Assembly: GCA_017472735.1 (NCBI GenBank)
Contig: JAFUOD010000002.1
Span: forward strand, 68,226-132,225
Length of the DNA: 64,000 bases
Direction: 5' to 3'
DNA from: Oscillospiraceae bacterium
GTDB lineage: Bacteria; Bacillota; Clostridia; Oscillospirales; Ruminococcaceae
The notes beneath the pieces are model-generated. The model was not told the origin of the DNA. It worked only from the letters and a program-made list of their open reading frames with translations, and did not search any database. The translations under genes were made by a program, and so were the position numbers. Positions 7,887-50,268 of the stretch are shown one piece after another. Positions within the stretch are counted from its first letter, which is position 1. Each line of letters begins with the position of its first letter.

Positions 7887-7897
7887 GTTTATTAAAA

Positions 7898-8124
7898 GGT
7901 GCGCTCGCTTCGCTCGCCTAATGCGGCACTCGCCCGGCACCCCCTTTTTTCAAAAGGGGACAGCCGTGCAACGCCGCGCCACCCCACCCCCGCCCCACGC
8001 AAAGCGTGCGGCGCCCCCTCCCCGCGGGGAGGGGGCTGTGCGGCGAAGCCGCGCAGGGGGTGGGGCAAGCGGCGTGGTTGCCCTAAGGCAACAAGTGCCG
8101 CATATGCCGCCGAAGGCGGCAACC
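7898..8124. repeat. GC-rich nested-hairpin intergenic element, copy A (largest)
   Basis: Outer stem 7921-7929/8095-8103. Inner stem 7982-7991/8056-8065 encloses three hairpins, including a perfect 22-nt palindrome at 8014-8035. Further hairpins lie at 7941-7959 and about 8078-8094. Confidence 0.8.
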
Positions 8125-8132
8125 TTTAAGCT

Positions 8133-14267: not shown

Positions 14268-14298
14268 AGCTCTCTCCAATGCAGGAGGGAGCTTTTTT
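14268..14298 (+). terminator. Rho-independent terminator of araD
   Basis: GCTCTCTCC/GGAGGGAGC stem (one mismatch) followed by TTTTTT. Confidence 0.7.
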
Positions 14299-14424
14299 GC
14301 GCGCCGACGTCGCGCGGTGCGCCTAAGCGAAGCGAGGGCTGTACGCGCGGTGGAGGCGCCGCCGGCCGCCGTTCCTCGCCGCTGCGCTTCGCGCAGCGCT
14401 CGGCTTCGCCGTCAGACGGCACCG
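14299..14424. repeat. GC-rich hairpin-mosaic intergenic element, copy B
   Basis: Contains modules CGCCGACGTCG (14302-14312), AGCGAAGCGAG (14326-14336), CGGTGGAGGCGC (14348-14359) and GCCGTC-A-GACGGCAC (14408-14422), plus hairpin CTGCGC-TTC-GCGCAG. Confidence 0.8.
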
Positions 14425-14465
14425 TTCAACGATTGACTTTATATTATCATGTGTTATAATAATTT

Positions 14466-14630
14466 CGTTATTTCAGGGAAACAGGTGAAACTCCTGTACT
14501 GGCACGCAGCCGTGTGGCGCACAAATTTATCCGTCTTACCCGTATCCGCAAAATCGGGGACAAAGCCATTGAGATCATTCTTGAGAAGGCGATGGATAAG
14601 CGCTTAGTCGAAATACCTGGATAGCAATTG
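14466..14630 (+). promoter_or_regulatory. Cobalamin (B12) riboswitch candidate
   Basis: AGGGAAACAGGTGAAACTCCTGTACTGGCACGCAGCCGTG core, with a B12-box-like AGTCGAAATACCTGG near 14607-14621. It lies upstream of a DUF4430 lipoprotein and an ECF S-component gene. Confidence 0.65.
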
Positions 14631-14700
14631 CCTTGTGAATGATCTGCGAGCGCCGGAAAAGCGAGGACAAGCTATATTAAAAAATAAAGGAGAAGCAAAA

Positions 14701-20008: not shown

Positions 20009-20143
20009 AGACTTTCCTCCAAATCTCTTGTTGGCATTTGTTTAGGTTACATTTTTGTCAATGCCTAAAATGTAATTTTGAGAGAGCATATAATTCTCAA
20101 AAGAAACAAATGCGGGCGTGAAATAAGCAAAACGAACCTATTT

Positions 20144-22750: not shown

Positions 22751-22921
22751 ATGGCTTTTAAGATTACTGACGAATGCATCAACTGTGGTGCTTGCGCTGC
22801 AGAGTGCCCTGTAAATGCTATTACCGAAGGCGCTGACAAGTATGAAATCGACGCTGATACCTGCATCGATTGCGGTAACTGCGCTGCTGTATGCCCTGTA
22901 GGCGCTCCTGTAGAGGACTAA
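22751..22921 (+). CDS. 2x[4Fe-4S] clostridial-type ferredoxin (56 aa)
   Basis: Below the ORF-track cut-off. My translation is MAFKITDECINCGACAAECPVNAITEGADKYEIDADTCIDCGNCAAVCPVGAPVED. AAGGAGG RBS. Confidence 0.9.
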   Translation: MAFKITDECINCGACAAECPVNAITEGADKYEIDADTCIDCGNCAAVCPVGAPVED

Positions 22922-22942
22922 TTGAATCTACATGAACCAAAA

Positions 22943-22967
22943 GCTCTCGCTTTGCGGGGGCTTTTTT
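22943..22967 (+). terminator. Rho-independent terminator of the ferredoxin gene
   Basis: GCTCTCGC/GCGGGGGC stem (with G-U pairs) followed by TTTTTT. Confidence 0.7.
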
Positions 22968-22984
22968 CATTTGTGCATTTTTAA

Positions 22985-23096
22985 GCTGTGGTGCGGGGCA
23001 CCGCCGCCGGCTCCTTCGGAGCCGGCTTTTTGCAAACGCCGCAGACGTTTGCAATCTCCGCCCGCGAAAGCGGGCGGAGTGGGCGGTGCCTGCAGC
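22985..23096. repeat. GC-rich nested-hairpin intergenic element, copy C (closed multi-helix junction)
   Basis: Closing stem GGCACCGCC (22997-23005)/GGCGGTGCC (23082-23090) encloses hairpins 23007-23025 (cUUCGg loop), 23030-23054 (9-bp stem) and 23056-23079 (10-bp stem, GAAA loop). Confidence 0.85.
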
Positions 23097-23230
23097 AAAC
23101 CATATCTCACAGATATTTCACTAAAAAATAAGCTAATTTTTACTTATGCCTATTGTAATTTGCACACGGTTTATGTTAATATATCAGTGTGTACTTTGAA
23201 GAAGCATTTTTTGTCGAAGGAGGGAGCTTG

Positions 23231-24037
23231 TTGGCAAAATACACATTCCAAAGATTTGAAAAGAAGTTCCTTCTCACGGTCGAGCAAATGGACAGGCTGA
23301 TCCCAAAGTTTATCGAGCATGGCATGGAATATGATAAATATTGCGTAGGCGGCAACATCTATACGATTTATAACATTTATTTCGATGATGTTACCTCGTC
23401 GGTAATCAGACGCTCGATTCGCAAGCCCAAGTTTAAAGAAAAATTCAGAATGCGAAGCTATGTTGTGCCGGTAACAGGTGAGGAAAAAGTCTTTTTAGAG
23501 ATTAAGCGCAAGGTTAAAAAAATCGTTCTAAAACGCAGAGCTGTTCTTACATATAACGAGGCGCTTGCTTATTTGAAGGACGGCACTCGCCCCGAAACAG
23601 ATGATTATAACAAAATTAGAATGTTTAACGAGTTAGACAACTACCTTTGCCGAAACAAGGTTAAACCTGCGATTTATTTAAGCTATGAGCGTATAGCGTT
23701 TTTTGATAAGGTCGATAAGAATTTCAGAATAACCTTCGACAGGAATATTACCACCCGCAGGCACGATTTAGACCTTGCAAAGGGTTCATACGGCGAGCAG
23801 CTGCTTCACGAAAATGAGCGCTTGATGGAGGTTAAAATAACTCACACCTTGCCCAAGTGGTTAAGCGATATTTTAACAGAAGAAAAAATATTCATGTCCG
23901 GCTTCTCTAAATACGGTAACGAATACCGCCGGATGAAGGGCTACGAGTTTACTCATTTGTGCGACAGACACCCCTTACCCGTGAAATATGAAAAAACAGA
24001 AAAACAAGAGCAAAAGGATGGTTTGAAAATATTATGA
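23231..24037 (+). CDS. VTC-domain (polyphosphate polymerase / triphosphate-tunnel) protein
   Basis: KYTFQRFEKKFLL..IYNIYFDD..FRMRSY..FLEIKRKV..RITFDRNI is the bacterial VTC-domain pattern. Start uncertain (TTG 23228/23231 after AAGGAGGG; track ORF begins at 23189). Confidence 0.75.
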   Translation: MAKYTFQRFEKKFLLTVEQMDRLIPKFIEHGMEYDKYCVGGNIYTIYNIYFDDVTSSVIRRSIRKPKFKEKFRMRSYVVPVTGEEKVFLEIKRKVKKIVLKRRAVLTYNEALAYLKDGTRPETDDYNKIRMFNELDNYLCRNKVKPAIYLSYERIAFFDKVDKNFRITFDRNITTRRHDLDLAKGSYGEQLLHENERLMEVKITHTLPKWLSDILTEEKIFMSGFSKYGNEYRRMKGYEFTHLCDRHPLPVKYEKTEKQEQKDGLKIL

Positions 24038-32016: not shown

Positions 32017-32097
32017 AATATTCCTCCGCAAAAAATTAATTTTACACGTTTTATTATATCACATATTTAAATAAATGAAAGTGGTTTATGAGAAAAT

Positions 32098-32202
32098 CCG
32101 CGCCGACGTCGCGGCGCGCGTTTTCTTTAGAAACTGTGCGCGCGGTGGAGGCGCTCAAGGCGCACACTCCCACGCCGGGCTTCGCACCGCCGCGGGGCGC
32201 GC
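32098..32202. repeat. GC-rich hairpin-mosaic intergenic element, copy E
   Basis: Modules CGCCGACGTCG (32101-32111) and CGGTGGAGGCGC (32143-32154). Stem TGTGCGC/GCGCACA. It abuts the TraX stop codon (32203-32205). Confidence 0.8.
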
Positions 32203-32961
32203 TTATCTAAAAACTGCTATTAAATACAGCACCAGCATGTGCAAGGGGTAAAACACATAGCAAATGTATTTAAATGCCACGCTTGAATGACCTTTTCTTC
32301 CGTTGTAAAGCCATATCGGCAAAAGTGCAAGAAGGGCAAGCGCCTGCATATGTATAAAGAGATCAAGCCCAAAGAAGTTAAGCTCATATCCGTATCCGCC
32401 CAAGATTTCGGTGTTTATGTATAACAGAGCTGCAACTTGTCCCAAAAGGTTATACCATTTCTTTTCACGGAAGAAATAGAATACCAACACCGTCAGCACA
32501 CCGCCGCCGTAATAATCTGCCATAGTAATTATGCCTGCAATATACGACAGAAGCATAACGCACACGGTAGCAAGTGCATACACCCATTTTTGTTCTGCCT
32601 GCTTTGCACGTTCGAGCACCCACATTGCGCCAAGAGCCATTAAAAATGTCCACAAAACGTTTTGGTGCAGGGGATAAAACAACCCTCCGCCTGCCATAAG
32701 GTTAAACGGAATCTCGGAAATAACGGCAAACACCAAAAGCCTTACGGCATATTTTTTGAGGTTTTTGGTGCGATAGAACCCTTCAACCGTCATAAACGCA
32801 AAAATGGGAAAAGCTATTCGCCCAACACACCTTATCCAATCGTTATAAACAAGCCCGACAGCACCTATATGGTCTAAAAGCATACACACCATTGCAATAA
32901 TGTGCAGTCCTGCCGAGGATATATCAAAGTGCAGTTTTTTAGTTTCCATTACATTCTCCAA
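32203..32961 (-). CDS. TraX-family membrane protein
   Basis: LHIIAMVCMLLDHIG N-terminal motif; polytopic, 252 aa. Confidence 0.7.
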   Translation of the reverse strand: MENVMETKKLHFDISSAGLHIIAMVCMLLDHIGAVGLVYNDWIRCVGRIAFPIFAFMTVEGFYRTKNLKKYAVRLLVFAVISEIPFNLMAGGGLFYPLHQNVLWTFLMALGAMWVLERAKQAEQKWVYALATVCVMLLSYIAGIITMADYYGGGVLTVLVFYFFREKKWYNLLGQVAALLYINTEILGGYGYELNFFGLDLFIHMQALALLALLPIWLYNGRKGHSSVAFKYICYVFYPLHMLVLYLIAVFR

Positions 32962-41263: not shown

Positions 41264-42289
41264 ATGAAAAAGTTGTTAAGCATTGTTTTAGCCGTTGTTA
41301 TGACTGCTGTTTTGTTTGCAGGCTGCGGCGCTGCAAAGACTGTTAAGTTTGGTGTGGGTGTTTATTCTTACTATGAAGCCGGCACAAACGCTACCGAAGA
41401 AGCTGAAGGCACAGGCGAAGTGGTTTCGACTGCAGCTGCTGTTATGTTAGACGCTGACGGCAAGATCGTTAAGTGCGTTATCGACACGGTTGATTACACA
41501 GCTCACTGGACTTTGGCAGGCGAAGATATCACTTATGAAAACGACGAAGATATCAAGACCAAGTACGAACTCGGCACCAACTACGGCATGGCCGCTTACG
41601 GCAACGACGTTAACGGCGACGGCAAGGTCTTGGAATGGAATGAACAGATCGACGCTTTCTGCTCTGTAGTTGAAGGCAAGACCATTGACGAAGTTAAAGC
41701 TTTGGTAGTAGACGGTTATCAGGGAAACGAAGAGGTTATGAATGCCGGCTGTACCATTGGCATTGCAGATTATGTTAAGGCTTTGGAAAAGGCTGTTGCA
41801 AACGTTCAAGATTCGGGTGCTACTGCTAACGACACCTTGAAGCTTGCATTTGTTTCGACTGACGAAGGCAAGGGCGCAACCGAAGAAGCTGACGGCAGCG
41901 TTGAATTGGAAGTTACTATCGTTGGTGCGGCTGTTAATGCCGACGGCAAGGTTTCGGCAATGGTTACCGATGCTGTTCAGGCCGCATTCGGCTTCAACAC
42001 TGTAGGCGCTGCAACTTATGATGCCGCTGCTGAGATCAAGACCAAGCTTGAAAAGGGTGACAGCTATAATATGGCTGCTTACGGCACCGACCTTAACGGT
42101 GACGGCAAGGTTTTGGAATGGTATGATCAGGCTGCTGCGTTTAATGCTGAATGCTTGGGCAAGACCGCAAGCGAGATCTCGGCACTTGTTGTTGACGGTT
42201 ACGGCGTTGAATCCTTGCAGACCGCAGGCTGCACCATCGGTATCTCCGATATGGTAAAGGCTGCTGTTAAGGCTGCAACTGTTGCTTAA
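41264..42289 (+). CDS. Lipoprotein with two internal repeats of an FMN_bind-like module (uncharacterised)
   Basis: Lipobox LFAGC. Repeat 1 is about aa 27-180 and repeat 2 about aa 192-341. Each ends ..NGDGKVLEW..VVDGY....AGCTIGI.D.VKA..KA. Confidence 0.5.
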   Translation: MKKLLSIVLAVVMTAVLFAGCGAAKTVKFGVGVYSYYEAGTNATEEAEGTGEVVSTAAAVMLDADGKIVKCVIDTVDYTAHWTLAGEDITYENDEDIKTKYELGTNYGMAAYGNDVNGDGKVLEWNEQIDAFCSVVEGKTIDEVKALVVDGYQGNEEVMNAGCTIGIADYVKALEKAVANVQDSGATANDTLKLAFVSTDEGKGATEEADGSVELEVTIVGAAVNADGKVSAMVTDAVQAAFGFNTVGAATYDAAAEIKTKLEKGDSYNMAAYGTDLNGDGKVLEWYDQAAAFNAECLGKTASEISALVVDGYGVESLQTAGCTIGISDMVKAAVKAATVA

Positions 42290-44010: not shown

Positions 44011-44150
44011 TTTATCAACTCCTTCAGTGTGATGTGAACTGTTCACTGCTGATATTGTAACACCTCGTATAGCAAAAAGCTATGACGAGGTGGTTTCATT
44101 TTTTGTCGATTAATTAAACTGCGATATTAAAAAACGCGTGAGAGTGAAAA

Positions 44151-44238
44151 CGGAAGGCGAGTGCCGAGCTGTGCCGCCGCGCCTCCACCGCCGGCACTGT
44201 TCGCCCCTTCGGGGCAAACGCGCCCGCCGACGTCGGCG
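44151..44238. repeat. GC-rich hairpin-mosaic intergenic element, copy F (inverted relative to B and E)
   Basis: GCGCCTCCACCG (44179-44190) is the reverse complement of the B/E module. CGCCGACGTCG lies at 44225-44235 inside a 14-nt palindrome. GCCCC-TTC-GGGGC hairpin. The element abuts the YitT stop codon. Confidence 0.8.
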
Positions 44239-45108
44239 CTAAATCTGCTGTTCGCCGTGAATCTTGTAACCTTCACCGAAAACCTCATTAGCGGTGGTTA
44301 CAATAGCAAACGATGCCTCGTCCTCACTTTTTATAATTTTAAGCGCTTTTGCTGCCAAACGCTTTTTAATAACGCACAAAACGACCTTTTTTTCTGCGCC
44401 CGAGTATGCACCCACGCCCTCCAAGAAAGTGGCACCTGCGTCAAGCTCGTTCAAAAGGCGGTCGGTAATCGCTTCATATTTATCCGAGATGATATAAATA
44501 ATCTTCGCTTCATCGCGGTTATAAAGAATCATATCAATAACGGTCGAATAAACAATAATGCAAATAACAGCATAAAGTGCAATCTCAATATCTTTGAAAA
44601 CAAGTGCAGACAAAGCAACAATAATGCCGTCGGTTATAACAAAAAGCTTGCCTGCGGAAAGATGCTTGAACTTTCTTCTTAAGAGCTTAACAATAACATC
44701 TGTGCCGCCTGTTGTAGCTCCCTCTCGAAGAATGATCTCAAGGCTTACCGCCATTGTAAAGCCGCCTGCAAGCGCTGCAAGCATAAGGTTTTCGGTAATA
44801 GGGTCAAACTGTGCAAAAATATCTATAAGCACTGAGGACAAAGCAACAGCGTAGATCGTTGGTGCCAAAAACCTAAACCCGAAAACAAAAATAGCCGCAA
44901 TAATTAAAGGAATGTTAAGGATAAGAATGATCGTGCCTGTTCCAAGCGAGGGGATAAAGTGGCTTATGATCATTGCAACACCTGTGAAACCGCCGGGCAC
45001 AATTCCGTTAGGTTCAATAAACAAGCTTACACCAATGGCATAAATCACCGTTGCAACGGTTATCATAAAATATTTTCTTAAAATGTTGCTAATCTTTGGG
45101 ATCTTCAT
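44239..45108 (-). CDS. YitT-family membrane protein (DUF2179 C-terminal domain)
   Basis: Polytopic N-terminus with repeated GG(F/T)TG motifs and a C-terminal soluble domain; 289 aa. Confidence 0.8.
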   Translation of the reverse strand: MKIPKISNILRKYFMITVATVIYAIGVSLFIEPNGIVPGGFTGVAMIISHFIPSLGTGTIILILNIPLIIAAIFVFGFRFLAPTIYAVALSSVLIDIFAQFDPITENLMLAALAGGFTMAVSLEIILREGATTGGTDVIVKLLRRKFKHLSAGKLFVITDGIIVALSALVFKDIEIALYAVICIIVYSTVIDMILYNRDEAKIIYIISDKYEAITDRLLNELDAGATFLEGVGAYSGAEKKVVLCVIKKRLAAKALKIIKSEDEASFAIVTTANEVFGEGYKIHGEQQI

Positions 45109-45258: not shown

Positions 45259-48000
45259 ATGATAAAAAGAGTGTTATCATTAATTTTAGCAGTTGTAATC
45301 GGTTTGTCAACCCTTTGTGCCTGCGCCCGGCACGAGGATGTCAAGAAGGACGATGTTCCTTCGGTAACATCTTCACCCGAACAAACCGAGGGCGAGGTTA
45401 CTTCGACTACTCAGGCGACTGCGACCGAAGAAACTACGACCGAAGCGACAACTACGCCCGAGGTTACAACGACCGAAGAAACCACAACAGCTGCAACCAC
45501 TACGACCGAGGCGGCTACTACCGAAGCTACGACTACGACAGTTACAACAACGACCGAGGCAACCACAACAACTGTCACCACCACTACTGAAGCCACAACG
45601 ACCACAGCCGCACCCAAGCCTGTTGAGCTTGGCGTTTTGGGCTATGATTTAAGCGAAAAGGTCTCGACCGATAAATCTCTTGCTAAGGGTAAGGTAACAA
45701 GCCTTGTTATTAACGAGGTCTGCCCGTCGAACAAAAACACTCTTGACGATAAAGACGGCGAATCAAAGGATTGGATCGAAATCTATAATCCTACCGACAG
45801 CGTTATCAATCTTGAGGGCGTTGGACTTTCGGATGATAAAAACGACCCGTTCAAGTGGACTTTCCCGAGCGTAAACATTCAAGCAAAGGGCTATATTATT
45901 GTATTCGCTTCCGATAAAGATATTAAGACCCCCGAGCTTCACACAAATTATAAGATTTCGGGTGGAAACGAAGAAATCGTTCTTACCTCATCCGACGGTA
46001 AGACCATCGATTCATTCATCATTTCTGCTACTGAAGAAGACCAGACCTATGGCAGATATCCCGATGGAAGCGATGGGTTGAGACTTCTCAGCGCAACTCC
46101 GGGCAAGTCGAATGACAAAGCCAAGGAGGTTGTCGAAGCAGGAACTCTTAAACCTCTGTTTTCTAACGAAAGCGGATTCTACAGCCAGCAGTTCAGCTTA
46201 AAAATCACCGCCGAACCGGGCTGCACAATTTATTACACCACGGATGGAAGCGTTCCCACGACAAAATCCAATAAATACACCCAGTCTATAACGATCAAGG
46301 ACCGTTCGAGCGACAAGGCGATTTTAACCTATAAACGTGATCTTACGGTTGCTGACGATTCGTTCTATCCTAACAAGGAATTTGAAAAGGCAACGATCAT
46401 TCGTGCAATTGCCGTTGATAAAAACGGTGTTGTCAGCGATGTTACTACTGCTACATATTTCGTAAGCTCGAGCATTGCAAATAAATATAAAGATGTTGAC
46501 CTTATCTCGGTAGTTATTGACCCCGATGACCTTTATGACCACGAAACAGGCATTTATGTTGCAGGTAAGGTGTTTGAGGATTGGCGTGCAGAGCACCCCA
46601 ACGATCCGCTTGACGGCAACTCTCAGGCAAACTTTAACCAGCGAGGAAGAGAATGGGAGCGTGACGCTCACATTGATTACTTCAGCTCAGCAAATCTCGA
46701 GTTCAGCTCTGATGTCGGCGTGAGAATTCACGGCGGCTGGTCGCGTAACAGCGCACAAAAGAGCCTTAGGTTCTACTTCCGCGACGAATATGGCGAAAGC
46801 AAGCTTGATTACGAGCTGTTTGAAGGCAATTATTCTGAAGATACAAACAAGAAAATTACTTCATATAAGCGTTTCCTTATCCGAAACGGCGGCAACGACT
46901 CGTATATTATGACCTTTAAAGACCCGTGGACACAGTCGCTGTTTAGCGAGTTCAATTTCGGCACACAGGCAACCAACCTTGTAATCTGCTTCCTCGACGG
47001 CGAATATTGGGGAGTCTATACGGCATGTGAATCACTTGACAAGCATTATGTCGAAGAAAAATACGGTGTGCCCGACGAAGACGTTGTTGTAATGAAGAAC
47101 AATTCTCTTGAAGACGGTGACGAACCCGGTGACGAAGAACTTTGGAATATAACCAGACGCTATATCCGTGACCACGACATGTCGAACCCCGACAATTACG
47201 CAAAGGCATGCGAAATGATGGATATGGATTCGTTTGCACAGTATATCGCTGCTGAAATTTATATCGGCAACGAGGACTGGATTTGGAACAATGCCGCATG
47301 GTGGCGTTCACGCTCGACCGATAAAGCAGACAGCCCTTATCAGGACGGTAAGTGGAGATTCTTGATGTTCGACGTTGAGTTTTCTATGAACCTTTACGGC
47401 AACGGCAAAGACGTTCAGTATGACATTTTAGATGATCTTCTTAGAAAAGATGGTTATTTCGGCCCCATTCTTTCTTCCCTCTTAAAGAACGATACATTCA
47501 AGCACAAGTTCGTTGTTGCATGTGAAGATGTTATGAACATCGCCTTCAACAAGAACTATGCCTCCAACAAGCTTAACTCTTACTTGCAGGAGTATTCGCC
47601 TTATCTTGAACAGCATTTTGACAGATATGTCGGCTGGCAATCGCTTAACGGCGTAAGAAATAATGTTGAGGACTGGAAGAAATGGGTTGCCAACAGGCAG
47701 AGCGCGTTCTTATCCATTCTTAAACAGGACCTTGGCATTGACGGTACAAACAACAAGGTCACTGTTGAATTAAGCGATACATCCGGAGGAATTGTCAGGG
47801 TGAACGGACACAAAGTACCCACAAGCGGCGGTTCGTGGAGCGGAACATATATGTCGGGATATAAAATCGTTATCGAGGCTGTTCCTGCAAAGGGCTATGA
47901 ATTCGTCGGCTGGTCGGGAAGCTATGACGGCGATGCAGCATCAATTACGGTTAATCCAGCAAAGGCATTGACCCTGAAAGCAAACTTTAAAAAGAAGTAG
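45259..48000 (+). CDS. CotH kinase-family surface lipoprotein with a Thr-rich stalk, lamin-tail (LTD) domain and C-terminal Listeria-Bacteroides-type repeat
   Basis: Lipobox LSTLCAC. LTD motif VINEVCPSN..DWIEIYNP. CotH core RIHGGWSR..LRNGGND. C-terminal GYEFVGWSGSY. Confidence 0.8.
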   Translation: MIKRVLSLILAVVIGLSTLCACARHEDVKKDDVPSVTSSPEQTEGEVTSTTQATATEETTTEATTTPEVTTTEETTTAATTTTEAATTEATTTTVTTTTEATTTTVTTTTEATTTTAAPKPVELGVLGYDLSEKVSTDKSLAKGKVTSLVINEVCPSNKNTLDDKDGESKDWIEIYNPTDSVINLEGVGLSDDKNDPFKWTFPSVNIQAKGYIIVFASDKDIKTPELHTNYKISGGNEEIVLTSSDGKTIDSFIISATEEDQTYGRYPDGSDGLRLLSATPGKSNDKAKEVVEAGTLKPLFSNESGFYSQQFSLKITAEPGCTIYYTTDGSVPTTKSNKYTQSITIKDRSSDKAILTYKRDLTVADDSFYPNKEFEKATIIRAIAVDKNGVVSDVTTATYFVSSSIANKYKDVDLISVVIDPDDLYDHETGIYVAGKVFEDWRAEHPNDPLDGNSQANFNQRGREWERDAHIDYFSSANLEFSSDVGVRIHGGWSRNSAQKSLRFYFRDEYGESKLDYELFEGNYSEDTNKKITSYKRFLIRNGGNDSYIMTFKDPWTQSLFSEFNFGTQATNLVICFLDGEYWGVYTACESLDKHYVEEKYGVPDEDVVVMKNNSLEDGDEPGDEELWNITRRYIRDHDMSNPDNYAKACEMMDMDSFAQYIAAEIYIGNEDWIWNNAAWWRSRSTDKADSPYQDGKWRFLMFDVEFSMNLYGNGKDVQYDILDDLLRKDGYFGPILSSLLKNDTFKHKFVVACEDVMNIAFNKNYASNKLNSYLQEYSPYLEQHFDRYVGWQSLNGVRNNVEDWKKWVANRQSAFLSILKQDLGIDGTNNKVTVELSDTSGGIVRVNGHKVPTSGGSWSGTYMSGYKIVIEAVPAKGYEFVGWSGSYDGDAASITVNPAKALTLKANFKKK
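45400..45609 (+). repeat. Low-complexity Thr/Glu/Ala-rich coding repeats inside the CotH-family gene
   Basis: Translated TTTEATTT(P/T)(E/V)VTTTE-type units repeated about 8 times. The nucleotide units are imperfect. Confidence 0.8.
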
Positions 48001-50128: not shown

Positions 50129-50268
50129 GCCGCACTGCCTGCCAAGCGCCCCCGCACCGCCGCTTTCAGCGGCGGCTTTCTTCGCCGTTTAGGCGAAGCC
50201 CCCGCTTGCAGCCCCAAGGGGATGCAAGCGGGCAGGGGGCGCCGGCACTCGCACTTGCCCTGCACCGA
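50129..50268. repeat. GC-rich nested-hairpin intergenic element, copy G
   Basis: Closing stem GCGCCCCC (50146-50153)/GGGGGCGC (50235-50242) encloses three hairpins: CCGCCGCT-TTC-AGCGGCGG, CTTCGCC-GTTTA-GGCGAAG, and a 10-bp stem CCCGCTTGCA/TGCAAGCGGG with an inner CCCC-AA-GGGG. Confidence 0.85.

Follow-up and report, generated by a model that had tools for sequence, protein, structure and literature searches.

In pneumococcal BOX elements, the two terminal modules base-pair and so enclose internal modules that form stem-loops, among them 0 to 8 boxB units. Mitochondrial GC clusters, described in yeast and elsewhere, are palindromic inserts in AT-richer intergenic DNA that are sporadic, diversify fast, and merge and shuffle (PMC4478555). 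MITEs are defined by AT-richness, target-site duplications and terminal repeats that match those of a resident insertion sequence (IS), and short repeats in general are over-represented downstream of coding sequences because insertion is tolerated there (PMC3049150). Here we analyze element C, a GC-rich palindromic insertion that lies between a ferredoxin gene and a VTC-domain gene in a 64-kb stretch of the genome of an Oscillospiraceae bacterium (the window, to which all unprefixed positions refer). The nearest named genomes are those of Candidatus Faeciplasma and of uncultured Oscillospiraceae metagenome-assembled genomes, and contigs of relatives carry L-numbers (L003 to L166).

Fold and insertion of element C

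Element C is about 110 bp long (22985-23096), of which about 94 bp run from one closing arm to the other, and is 71% GC in a window of 44% GC. It sits past the ferredoxin gene (22751-22921) and its terminator (22939-22965) and ahead of the VTC-domain gene, where an earlier interpretation made from the letters alone (the sequence-only reading) had also placed it. A reverse-complement check bore out the exact complementarity claimed between GGCACCGCC (22997-23005) and 23082-23090, and neither arm has another occurrence within the window. The three perfect hairpins that had been drawn inside this closing helix were all at the correct coordinates, and the extension that had been proposed for it, GCTG with CAGC, is present in the computed fold as GCTG(T)/(G)CAGC. 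We define the extension as outer stem P0, the closing helix as P1, and the hairpins as H1, H2 and H3 (Table 1).

Folding significance was expressed as z against dinucleotide shuffles, with 200 shuffles per case. Folded as RNA, positions 22980-23100 had a minimum free energy (MFE) of −81.6 kcal/mol on the plus strand (z = −8.2) and −80.6 kcal/mol on the minus strand (z = −8.4). Folded as single-stranded DNA, positions 22985-23096 gave −50.4 kcal/mol on the plus strand (z = −7.4) and −50.2 kcal/mol on the minus strand (z = −8.6). As 0 of 200 shuffles were as good in any of the four cases, the fold expected by the sequence-only reading stood up to shuffled controls on both strands. Moreover, element C was 100% identical in an ENA metagenome contig and in the Logan assembly of another run, and we conclude that it is real sequence and not a one-off assembly artefact.

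The sequence-only reading had also assigned a cUUCGg tetraloop to H1 and a GAAA tetraloop to H3, and had taken such ultra-stable loops as a sign of selection. GAAA on H3 is real and is the sole genuine GNRA tetraloop of element C, but the register of H1 is set by its palindrome, TCC-TTC-GGA, which leaves a UUC triloop with a C-G closing pair; reading UUCG as the loop would put a C/A mismatch at the next pair. Because the UUCG assignment does not fit the register, and because every ortholog has different loops, the argument from tetraloops fails.

To place the element among relatives, the ferredoxin/VTC spacer was compared across assemblies. The spacer lacks the element in five relatives (L004, L005, L006, L011 and L012). 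In L004, L005 and L006, the VTC proteins of which are 71 to 76% identical to that of the window, the ferredoxin terminator abuts a conserved AT-rich promoter region, and alignment of the window with these three contigs shows a clean gap of about 125 bp. The VTC proteins of the two further empty-site relatives are 85% (L011) and 80% (L012) identical. The spacer is occupied in the window and in four other, closer assemblies, namely, L010 and L014 (VTC 88% identical in both), L015 (85%) and L016 (83%). We conclude that element C is a lineage-specific insertion and not a conserved feature of the locus.

Orthologs at the C site were aligned with Infernal to a covariance model (R1) built from the window copy alone, because MAFFT alignments of orthologous islands misplace helices; the Infernal alignment is in turn biased towards structure. 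The orthologs fold as outer stem, closing helix and three hairpins, save that L016 has two hairpins, with plus-strand z between −3.0 and −9.2. P1 is the most conserved part (78 to 89% per arm), though 5 of its 10 pairs are changed on both sides in L015, and P0 covaries in L010, L014, L015 and L016. The hairpins are altered more freely. The H1 apex is rewritten in L010 and L014. H2 reads CTCCAAACGCCC-TTT-GGGCGTTTGGAG in the same two contigs, with two pairs changed on both sides (TTGC/GCAA to CTCC/GGAG), and is replaced by an unrelated hairpin, ACCGCCGCAAGCGGCGGT, in L015. H3 keeps the base of its stem while its apex and loop change, and neither the H1 loop nor the H3 loop of the window copy is conserved. 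Moreover, H1 is flipped between two relatives: the L010 hairpin, GCCGGCCTCCTGTCGGGGGCCGGC, matches the reverse complement of the L014 hairpin, GCCGGCCCCCGACAGGGGGCCGGC, at all but 1 nt, and by inspection just one further difference separates the two elements outside this flip.

Relative to the window copy, 5 pairs are changed on both sides, 0 on one side and 3 are mismatched in L014; the corresponding counts are 15, 2 and 3 in L015 and 9, 2 and 5 in L016. The sequence-only reading had looked to compensatory changes among homologs, and changes on both sides of a pair do dominate. What the counts show is that the architecture is preserved, not that there is strict covariation position by position.

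Several further observations touch the C site. In L012 (6262-9861; also in L013), five genes without Pfam hits, about 3.7 kb in all, lie between the ferredoxin and VTC genes, at the exact spot where other relatives have element C. In the window, two open reading frames (ORFs) traverse the element, one on the plus strand (22932-23300, 122 aa) and one on the minus strand (22821-23054, 77 aa). Since orthologs differ by indels of lengths not divisible by three, and some relatives lack the element, these overlapping ORFs are spurious, and coding potential was rejected; GC-rich islands of this kind likely give rise to false gene calls.

Related islands in the window and in relatives

The label that the sequence-only reading had used, copy C, hinted at a family that it did not characterize, and the family does exist. 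The window contains six GC-rich intergenic islands (A to F), all at the 3′ ends of housekeeping genes, and no mobile-element genes are found among the flanking genes. Three of the islands (A, C and F; C type) consist of palindromes nested in one another and fold strongly on either strand (z from −4.6 to −9.6). R1 aligned island F along its full length (35.5 bits; E about 9e-6, the E-values of this model being rough), and F, the fold of which has z = −4.6 to −6.2, was also recovered by a structural descriptor that requires a Watson-Crick closing helix of at least 6 bp directly around two to four perfect hairpins. R1 further matched the L162 element orthologous to F (32.8 bits), a sequence-unrelated element downstream of YitT in L164 and L165 (17.6 bits, a borderline E of 0.08; z = −6.0) and, with filters off, the full length of the inner core of island A (19.9 bits). 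Island A as a whole folds with z = −9.6 and −8.0.

The descriptor was run on 277 kb of Oscillospiraceae sequence, to which the window contributes 64 kb and relatives about 213 kb. Eight junctions had at least three hairpins; each had exactly three, spanned 80 to 97 nt, and the eight fell at three independent loci. By comparison, 60 block-shuffled replicates of the 277 kb gave 2 junctions in total (about 0.03 per replicate), 12,000 shuffles of islands gave 0, and 921 kb of natural DNA at 68% GC, consisting of metagenome matches used solely as high-GC background, gave 3 weak ones. Within the 64 kb, blastn and repeat searches found no sequence-like copy of C, and A and F, its paralogs, have architecture alone in common with it. 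Searches in distant-mode blastn with C (plasmids and phages) and with island B (plasmids) gave no match. Short hairpins shared between islands, such as GCGGCGAAGCCGC in island A and L163, were not relied on as signs of exchange, because so few 5- to 6-bp G/C stems with GAA loops are possible that they can recur by chance. We conclude that the closed three-hairpin design is that of a family and is not unique to C. As the shape is kept in diverged orthologs and recurs at other loci, the claim that this is a selected structure, and not random GC-rich sequence, was a fair one.

Retention of shape over sequence is also seen at the F site, which was compared between the window and L162 (adjoining citrate synthase 93% identical). 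The closing arms are 100% identical and the flanking noncoding DNA is 69 to 75% identical, whereas the three-hairpin interior is 58% identical, within the range of shuffles (mean, 52%; maximum, 60.5%). Despite this chance-level identity, the L162 interior still forms three perfect hairpins (z = −6.2). The F site is empty in L164 and L165, and the L166 contig starts inside an island. In L163 (9745-9765), the site holds merely a 16-nt mini-palindrome, GCGGCACAAGTGCTGC, which could be the seed or the excision scar of an element. We note a likeness between the arms of GCGGCACAAGTGCTGC and the outer of the closing helices in island A, GCGGCACT/AGTGCCGC. At the post-YitT site, L162 has a conserved ortholog of island E that differs mainly at the apex of its variable hairpin, L163 has an unrelated island, and L164 has the closed three-hairpin element. 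Both the post-YitT and post-DpaB sites are thus occupied, empty or differently occupied, depending on the relative.

Islands B, D and E are of a different, B type (Table 1), which shows no significant folding (z from about 0 to −1.7; about 0 for B). The B-type order is GCGCCGACGTCG, a variable hairpin and GCGGTGGAGGCGC, with a 3′ end that reads GACGGCRCC. Island B is 81% identical to L011 2822-2969. Its 5′ module is present in D, E and L006 (1398-1455), and its 3′ module recurs at a different locus, after DpaB, in L012 (2471-2552) and L015 (1780-1855); the post-DpaB site is empty in the window and in L011. The presence of the 3′ half of B at another locus in L012 and L015 indicates that modules were copied between sites. 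Short words such as GGCAC(C/T)CGCC and GCACCGCCGC link C-type and B-type islands. A terminal-repeat core, GGCRCCG, that the closing helix of C shares with the ends of B-type islands (8 nt, one mismatch) was set aside as suggestive only. B-type islands had no match in Rfam. A search of metagenome and viral collections for the B motif, GCCGACGTCG-N20-50-GCGGTGGAGG, returned only chance matches among the matches listed, which were in contigs of 50 to 68% GC, none of them a GC island in a low-GC context.

Other features of the window and of the relatives were recorded alongside the islands. A cobalamin riboswitch (14439-14638, plus strand; RF00174; 43.7 bits, above the gathering score) lies directly downstream of island B and upstream of a DUF4430 gene. 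The riboswitch and a two-gene block are absent from the aldolase-to-DUF1846 interval of L011, where other genes adjoin the B homolog. These variable genes beside island B, together with the five-gene block of L012, hint that island sites coincide with hotspots of gene gain and loss. Contigs of independent assemblies start at islands or at their sites: position 1 of L166 is inside an island, that of L014 is at the terminator about 40 nt upstream of an island, and that of L003 is a few codons into the VTC gene, which suggests that islands break short-read assemblies. In the methyltransferase/galactokinase spacer, an AT-rich stretch (20034-20113, 29% GC) has a perfect 10-bp closing helix around two perfect hairpins of 9 and 8 bp, and its folding is not significant (z = −1.5). 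Within coding DNA, nine overlapping copies of a 15/18-nt repeat rich in ACN, CCG and GAA (45370-45612) in a CotH/LTD-domain gene (45259-48000) probably encode a Thr/Pro/Glu-rich linker, and an internal duplication at 41374-42130 has a period of about 483 to 486 nt and three copies of GTTAACGGCGACGGCAAGGT.

Table 1. Parts of element C and other islands of the window
Feature	Position	Strand	Sequence or description	Basis
Outer stem P0, 5′ arm	22985..22989	+	GCTGT; partner 23092-23096	MFE structure
Closing helix P1, 5′ arm	22996..23005	+	G-GGCACCGCC	Exact complementarity
Hairpin H1	23006..23026	+	GCCGGCTCC-TTC-GGAGCCGGC; 9 bp, UUC triloop	
Hairpin H2	23030..23054	+	TTGCAAACG-CCGCAGA-CGTTTGCAA; 9 bp, 7-nt loop	
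Hairpin H3	23056..23079	+	CTCCGCCCGC-GAAA-GCGGGCGGAG; 10 bp, GNRA loop	
Closing helix P1, 3′ arm	23082..23091	+	GGCGGTGCC-T	
Outer stem P0, 3′ arm	23092..23096	+	GCAGC	MFE structure
Island A, inner unit	7976..8075	−	Closed three-hairpin unit nested within A (7895-8130)	
Island F	50134..50249	+	Closing helix GCGCCCCC/GGGGGCGC (50146-50242) around three perfect hairpins	
Island B	14295..14435	+	Boxes GCGCCGACGTCG and GCGGTGGAGGCGC; modular, sequence-conserved second type	
Island D	32095..32212	+	B-type 5′ module	
Island E	44125..44262	−	B-type 5′ module and GGCACTCGCC word	

Level of action and origin of the element

Both strands fold equally well, G·U pairs make up 2 to 5% of pairs in islands A, C and F and in the orthologs versus 17% in the cobalamin riboswitch of the window, and one-sided pair changes are scarce in the C-site alignment. 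Taken together with the hairpin flip, these observations point to palindromy at the DNA level and to template switching. Template switching between inverted repeats has documented signatures, arm homogenisation and spacer inversion (PMC8604942; PMC8794818), and it can create and maintain perfect stems, with multi-base compensatory changes made in one step (PMC8794818). The sequence-only reading had spoken of an RNA or single-stranded DNA structure; a structure far beyond chance is there, and on balance RNA is not favored over DNA.

We give a probability of about one half to the reading that element C is a structure-defined palindromic DNA element, similar to REP/BIME sequences or to mitochondrial GC clusters. 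It would be one copy of a GC-rich closed three-hairpin family that resides in 3′-end intergenic DNA of Candidatus Faeciplasma and its relatives. Dispersal would have brought it into the ferredoxin/VTC spacer in the ancestor of a sub-clade, where it would persist because insertions are tolerated in the slot that separates a terminator from the promoter that follows. The heritable trait would be the shape, namely, inverted termini, an outer stem, a closing helix of 7 to 10 bp and exactly three tight hairpins, and the interior sequence would turn over fast. The arms, we infer, would be kept perfectly Watson-Crick because intrastrand template switching during DNA replication makes or repairs changes, one arm being copied from the other and a hairpin being able to flip. 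Selection, either for the element's own propagation or for use by the host, would maintain the closed three-hairpin geometry, which a structure-specific protein would most plausibly recognize when the DNA is single-stranded or extruded.

A number of results weigh against this reading. Comparisons of occupied with empty sites revealed neither a target-site duplication nor a sharp excision footprint, and the empty site of L011 has 13 unrelated bases in place of element C. The family amounts to three independent loci and the inner core of A, and each site has four to five orthologs. In the 64 kb and the roughly 213 kb from relatives, no two loci held near-identical copies, so that transposition is not demonstrated, and no candidate mobilising enzyme was identified. 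The apparently compensatory changes stem largely from unalignable interiors and from an alignment fitted to structure. The plus strand is slightly more stable than the minus strand, by 1.3 to 7.9 kcal/mol, in four of four C-site orthologs, which would fit weak selection at the RNA level. Finally, template switching explains perfect hairpins but does not by itself explain why hairpin number and size are constant. The fixed three hairpins within about 90 nt, and the GC bias, point to a putative reader of the fold.

A bolder possibility, which we put forward tentatively, is that these elements may constitute a new class of dispersed bacterial elements that is defined by shape and not by sequence, each a closed, GC-rich four-way junction read by a junction-specific protein. 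Such an element would be about 90 nt long, with inverted termini and exactly three capped arms of about 6 to 13 bp, and its interior would be rewritten continually, by template switching or by exchange between copies. The reader might be a recombinase, a resolvase or an HU- or gyrase-like factor that either moves the element or uses it as a chromosomal landmark, and bacteria would then have an equivalent of mitochondrial GC clusters with a geometry of its own. If the structure-defined reading is right, an abundant uncultured lineage of gut Oscillospiraceae carries several such elements per 64 kb, which would have escaped annotation because they are invisible to sequence-based repeat finders and to Rfam. 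In these islands, secondary structure would have been retained in nature even though the interiors are no more alike than chance, and their signs of one-step, arm-copying mutation bear on whether perfect stems are created and kept by selection or by template switching. On the practical side, the islands coincide with contig breaks in several assemblies and yield long spurious ORFs.

One alternative, which we consider unlikely, is that the element acts as RNA, forming a super-stable four-way-junction module on read-through transcripts or at the end of a 3′ untranslated region (UTR), where it might block 3′-to-5′ exonucleases, serve as a fail-safe terminator or insulator, or give a protein-binding small RNA. 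Location at the 3′ ends of genes is consistent with this idea. Termination and mRNA stability are known to be influenced by clustered hairpins and by repeat elements in such positions (PMC8355165; PMC3049150), and the post-DpaB islands of L012 and L015 are certainly transcribed because they lie inside the 3′ UTR, between stop codon and terminator. C, F, A and the L164 element, however, all lie downstream of a canonical U-run terminator with no promoter upstream; ahead of C itself there is a strong terminator instead. H1 with its U-run looks like a terminator in the window copy of C and, by eye, in F and L162, but among C-site copies the TTTTT next to H1 has a terminator-like score in the window alone, and the run is lost in L010, L014, L015 and L164. 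As a GC hairpin with a conserved U-run is not found at the site, where a canonical terminator already stands upstream of C, the element was not classed as an intrinsic or hairpin-cluster terminator. At C, F and L164, R1 scored best on the strand that runs in the sense direction of the upstream gene (3 of 3 loci, not significant), which, like the plus-strand stability edge of the four C-site orthologs, would suit a transcript. A functional RNA is harder to reconcile with equal folding of the strands, with the near absence of G·U pairs and one-sided changes, with loops that are not conserved, the special ones included, and with B-type islands that occur in both orientations relative to the upstream gene.

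Known RNA families were searched as well. At the gathering level, Rfam 15 matched the cobalamin riboswitch and nothing else in the whole window. A permissive scan of 22900-23200 returned 10.8 to 19.8 bits, against gathering scores of 47 to 80, and a permissive scan of the whole window matched no island. ARAGORN found 0 tRNA or transfer-messenger RNA genes in the window; the arms of C are 9 to 10 bp and its loops 3 to 7 nt. With no match in Rfam or ARAGORN, a tRNA-like or ribozyme reading was rejected. A group II intron fragment, prompted by GTGCG near the 5′ end and by the GAAA-capped 10-bp hairpin, was also rejected because 112 nt is too short, H3 is without the domain V bulge, and the features are not conserved in orthologs.

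Less likely still is that the palindromes are mutational by-products that grow in place beside terminators, by repeated fold-back or template-switch synthesis or by break repair, with neither selection on shape nor mobility. A single template-switch event can create perfect hairpins (PMC8794818), and the hairpin flip between L010 and L014, the replacement of interiors inside a fixed frame, the lack of any target-site duplication or transposase, and the solitary GCGGCACAAGTGCTGC at the F site of L163, either seed or scar, are all compatible with growth in place. An unselected process, however, should not preserve a design through complete turnover of the interior, and one design (three hairpins, a closing helix of 7 to 10 bp and a span of 80 to 97 nt) is found at at least three loci. 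The conserved 12- to 15-nt boxes of B-type islands at non-orthologous loci in different genomes need copying between sites, and about 70% GC within a 44% GC genome requires a bias that growth in place does not supply.

It is improbable that element C is a structural site in DNA recruited by the host, whatever its origin, to buffer supercoils, bind a protein or mark a domain boundary. Some Escherichia coli BIMEs bind DNA gyrase and IHF, and the islands have strand-symmetric palindromy, a position that either lies past a terminator and ahead of the next promoter or separates convergent genes, and persistence across lineages in which the flanking VTC proteins are just 83 to 88% identical. At each site, close relatives differ freely in whether an element is present, which speaks against an essential role there, and no binding motif is conserved in C-type elements. 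A chance GC-rich feature or an assembly artefact, for which only the general folding tendency of GC-rich sequence speaks, can be dismissed, given z values of −7 or lower that none of 200 shuffles equaled, no such junction in 12,000 island shuffles, identity in independent assemblies and orthologs in four others.

Comparison with described families

Integron attC sites are, like element C, folded at the single-strand level, conserved in structure over sequence and located at gene 3′ ends, where they act as recombination sites. An attC site, however, is one long bulged hairpin with R and L core sites (R″/R′, RYYYAAC...GTTRRRY) in cassette arrays beside an integrase (intI), whereas there is no GTTRRRY at the ends of C, its neighbors are housekeeping genes, and its fold is three hairpins in a closing helix. 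Four-way-junction RNAs, such as the tRNA cloverleaf and the hairpin and twister-sister ribozymes, likewise place a closing helix around three helices. They have conserved loops, internal loops or bulges, and tertiary contacts, whereas all helices of the C family are perfect and its loops are minimal and variable.

By analogy, element C resembles REP/BIME, MITE and BOX repeats in niche and in its noncoding nature. The REP/BIME sequences of enterobacteria and pseudomonads are noncoding, GC-rich extragenic palindromes of mosaic, modular build that lie at gene 3′ ends or between convergent genes, and six of six islands of the window lie at the 3′ ends of genes. REPs differ in that they are single imperfect hairpins of 20 to 40 nt with a consensus, a 5′ GTAG foot, hundreds of copies and a link to RAYT proteins, whereas members of the C family are closed three-hairpin junctions of about 90 nt, the copies of which share shape and almost no sequence. 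Neither GTAG nor CTAC occurs in 22985-23096, and no transposase-like gene flanks any island. MITEs such as Correia and Nezha are small, noncoding, strongly folded and intergenic, with inverted termini, and element C has inverted termini as well (GCTGT...GGCACCGCC and GGCGGTGCC...GCAGC); it is neither AT-rich nor bounded by a target-site duplication, and there is no IS within the window. BOX, RUP and SPRITE repeats share with C a Firmicutes host, modular build, extensive base pairing and over-representation downstream of coding sequences, but BOX modules are sequence-conserved, AT-rich, variable in number and demonstrably cotranscribed (PMC3049150), whereas C-family hairpins are fixed at three, about 70% GC and not conserved in sequence. 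Element C is not AT-rich, has no GTAG foot and shares no sequence consensus with other copies in the 64 kb, and no target-site duplication, partner IS or RAYT gene was seen in the DNA covered, so that we do not place it within any of these families.

Mitochondrial GC clusters differ in being organellar, in being mostly single hairpins of 30 to 60 nt that form sequence families, and in having proposed target-site duplications (PMC4478555). Members of the C family are closed three-hairpin junctions in a bacterial chromosome, and no duplication was seen. GC clusters and the C family are alike in that neither has a known mobilising enzyme. Moreover, the islands share with GC clusters their GC-rich palindromes, polymorphism for presence and absence, rapid diversification, and merger, the last seen here in nested island A and in the B-type modules, a likeness that is one of resemblance only, the host here being bacterial.

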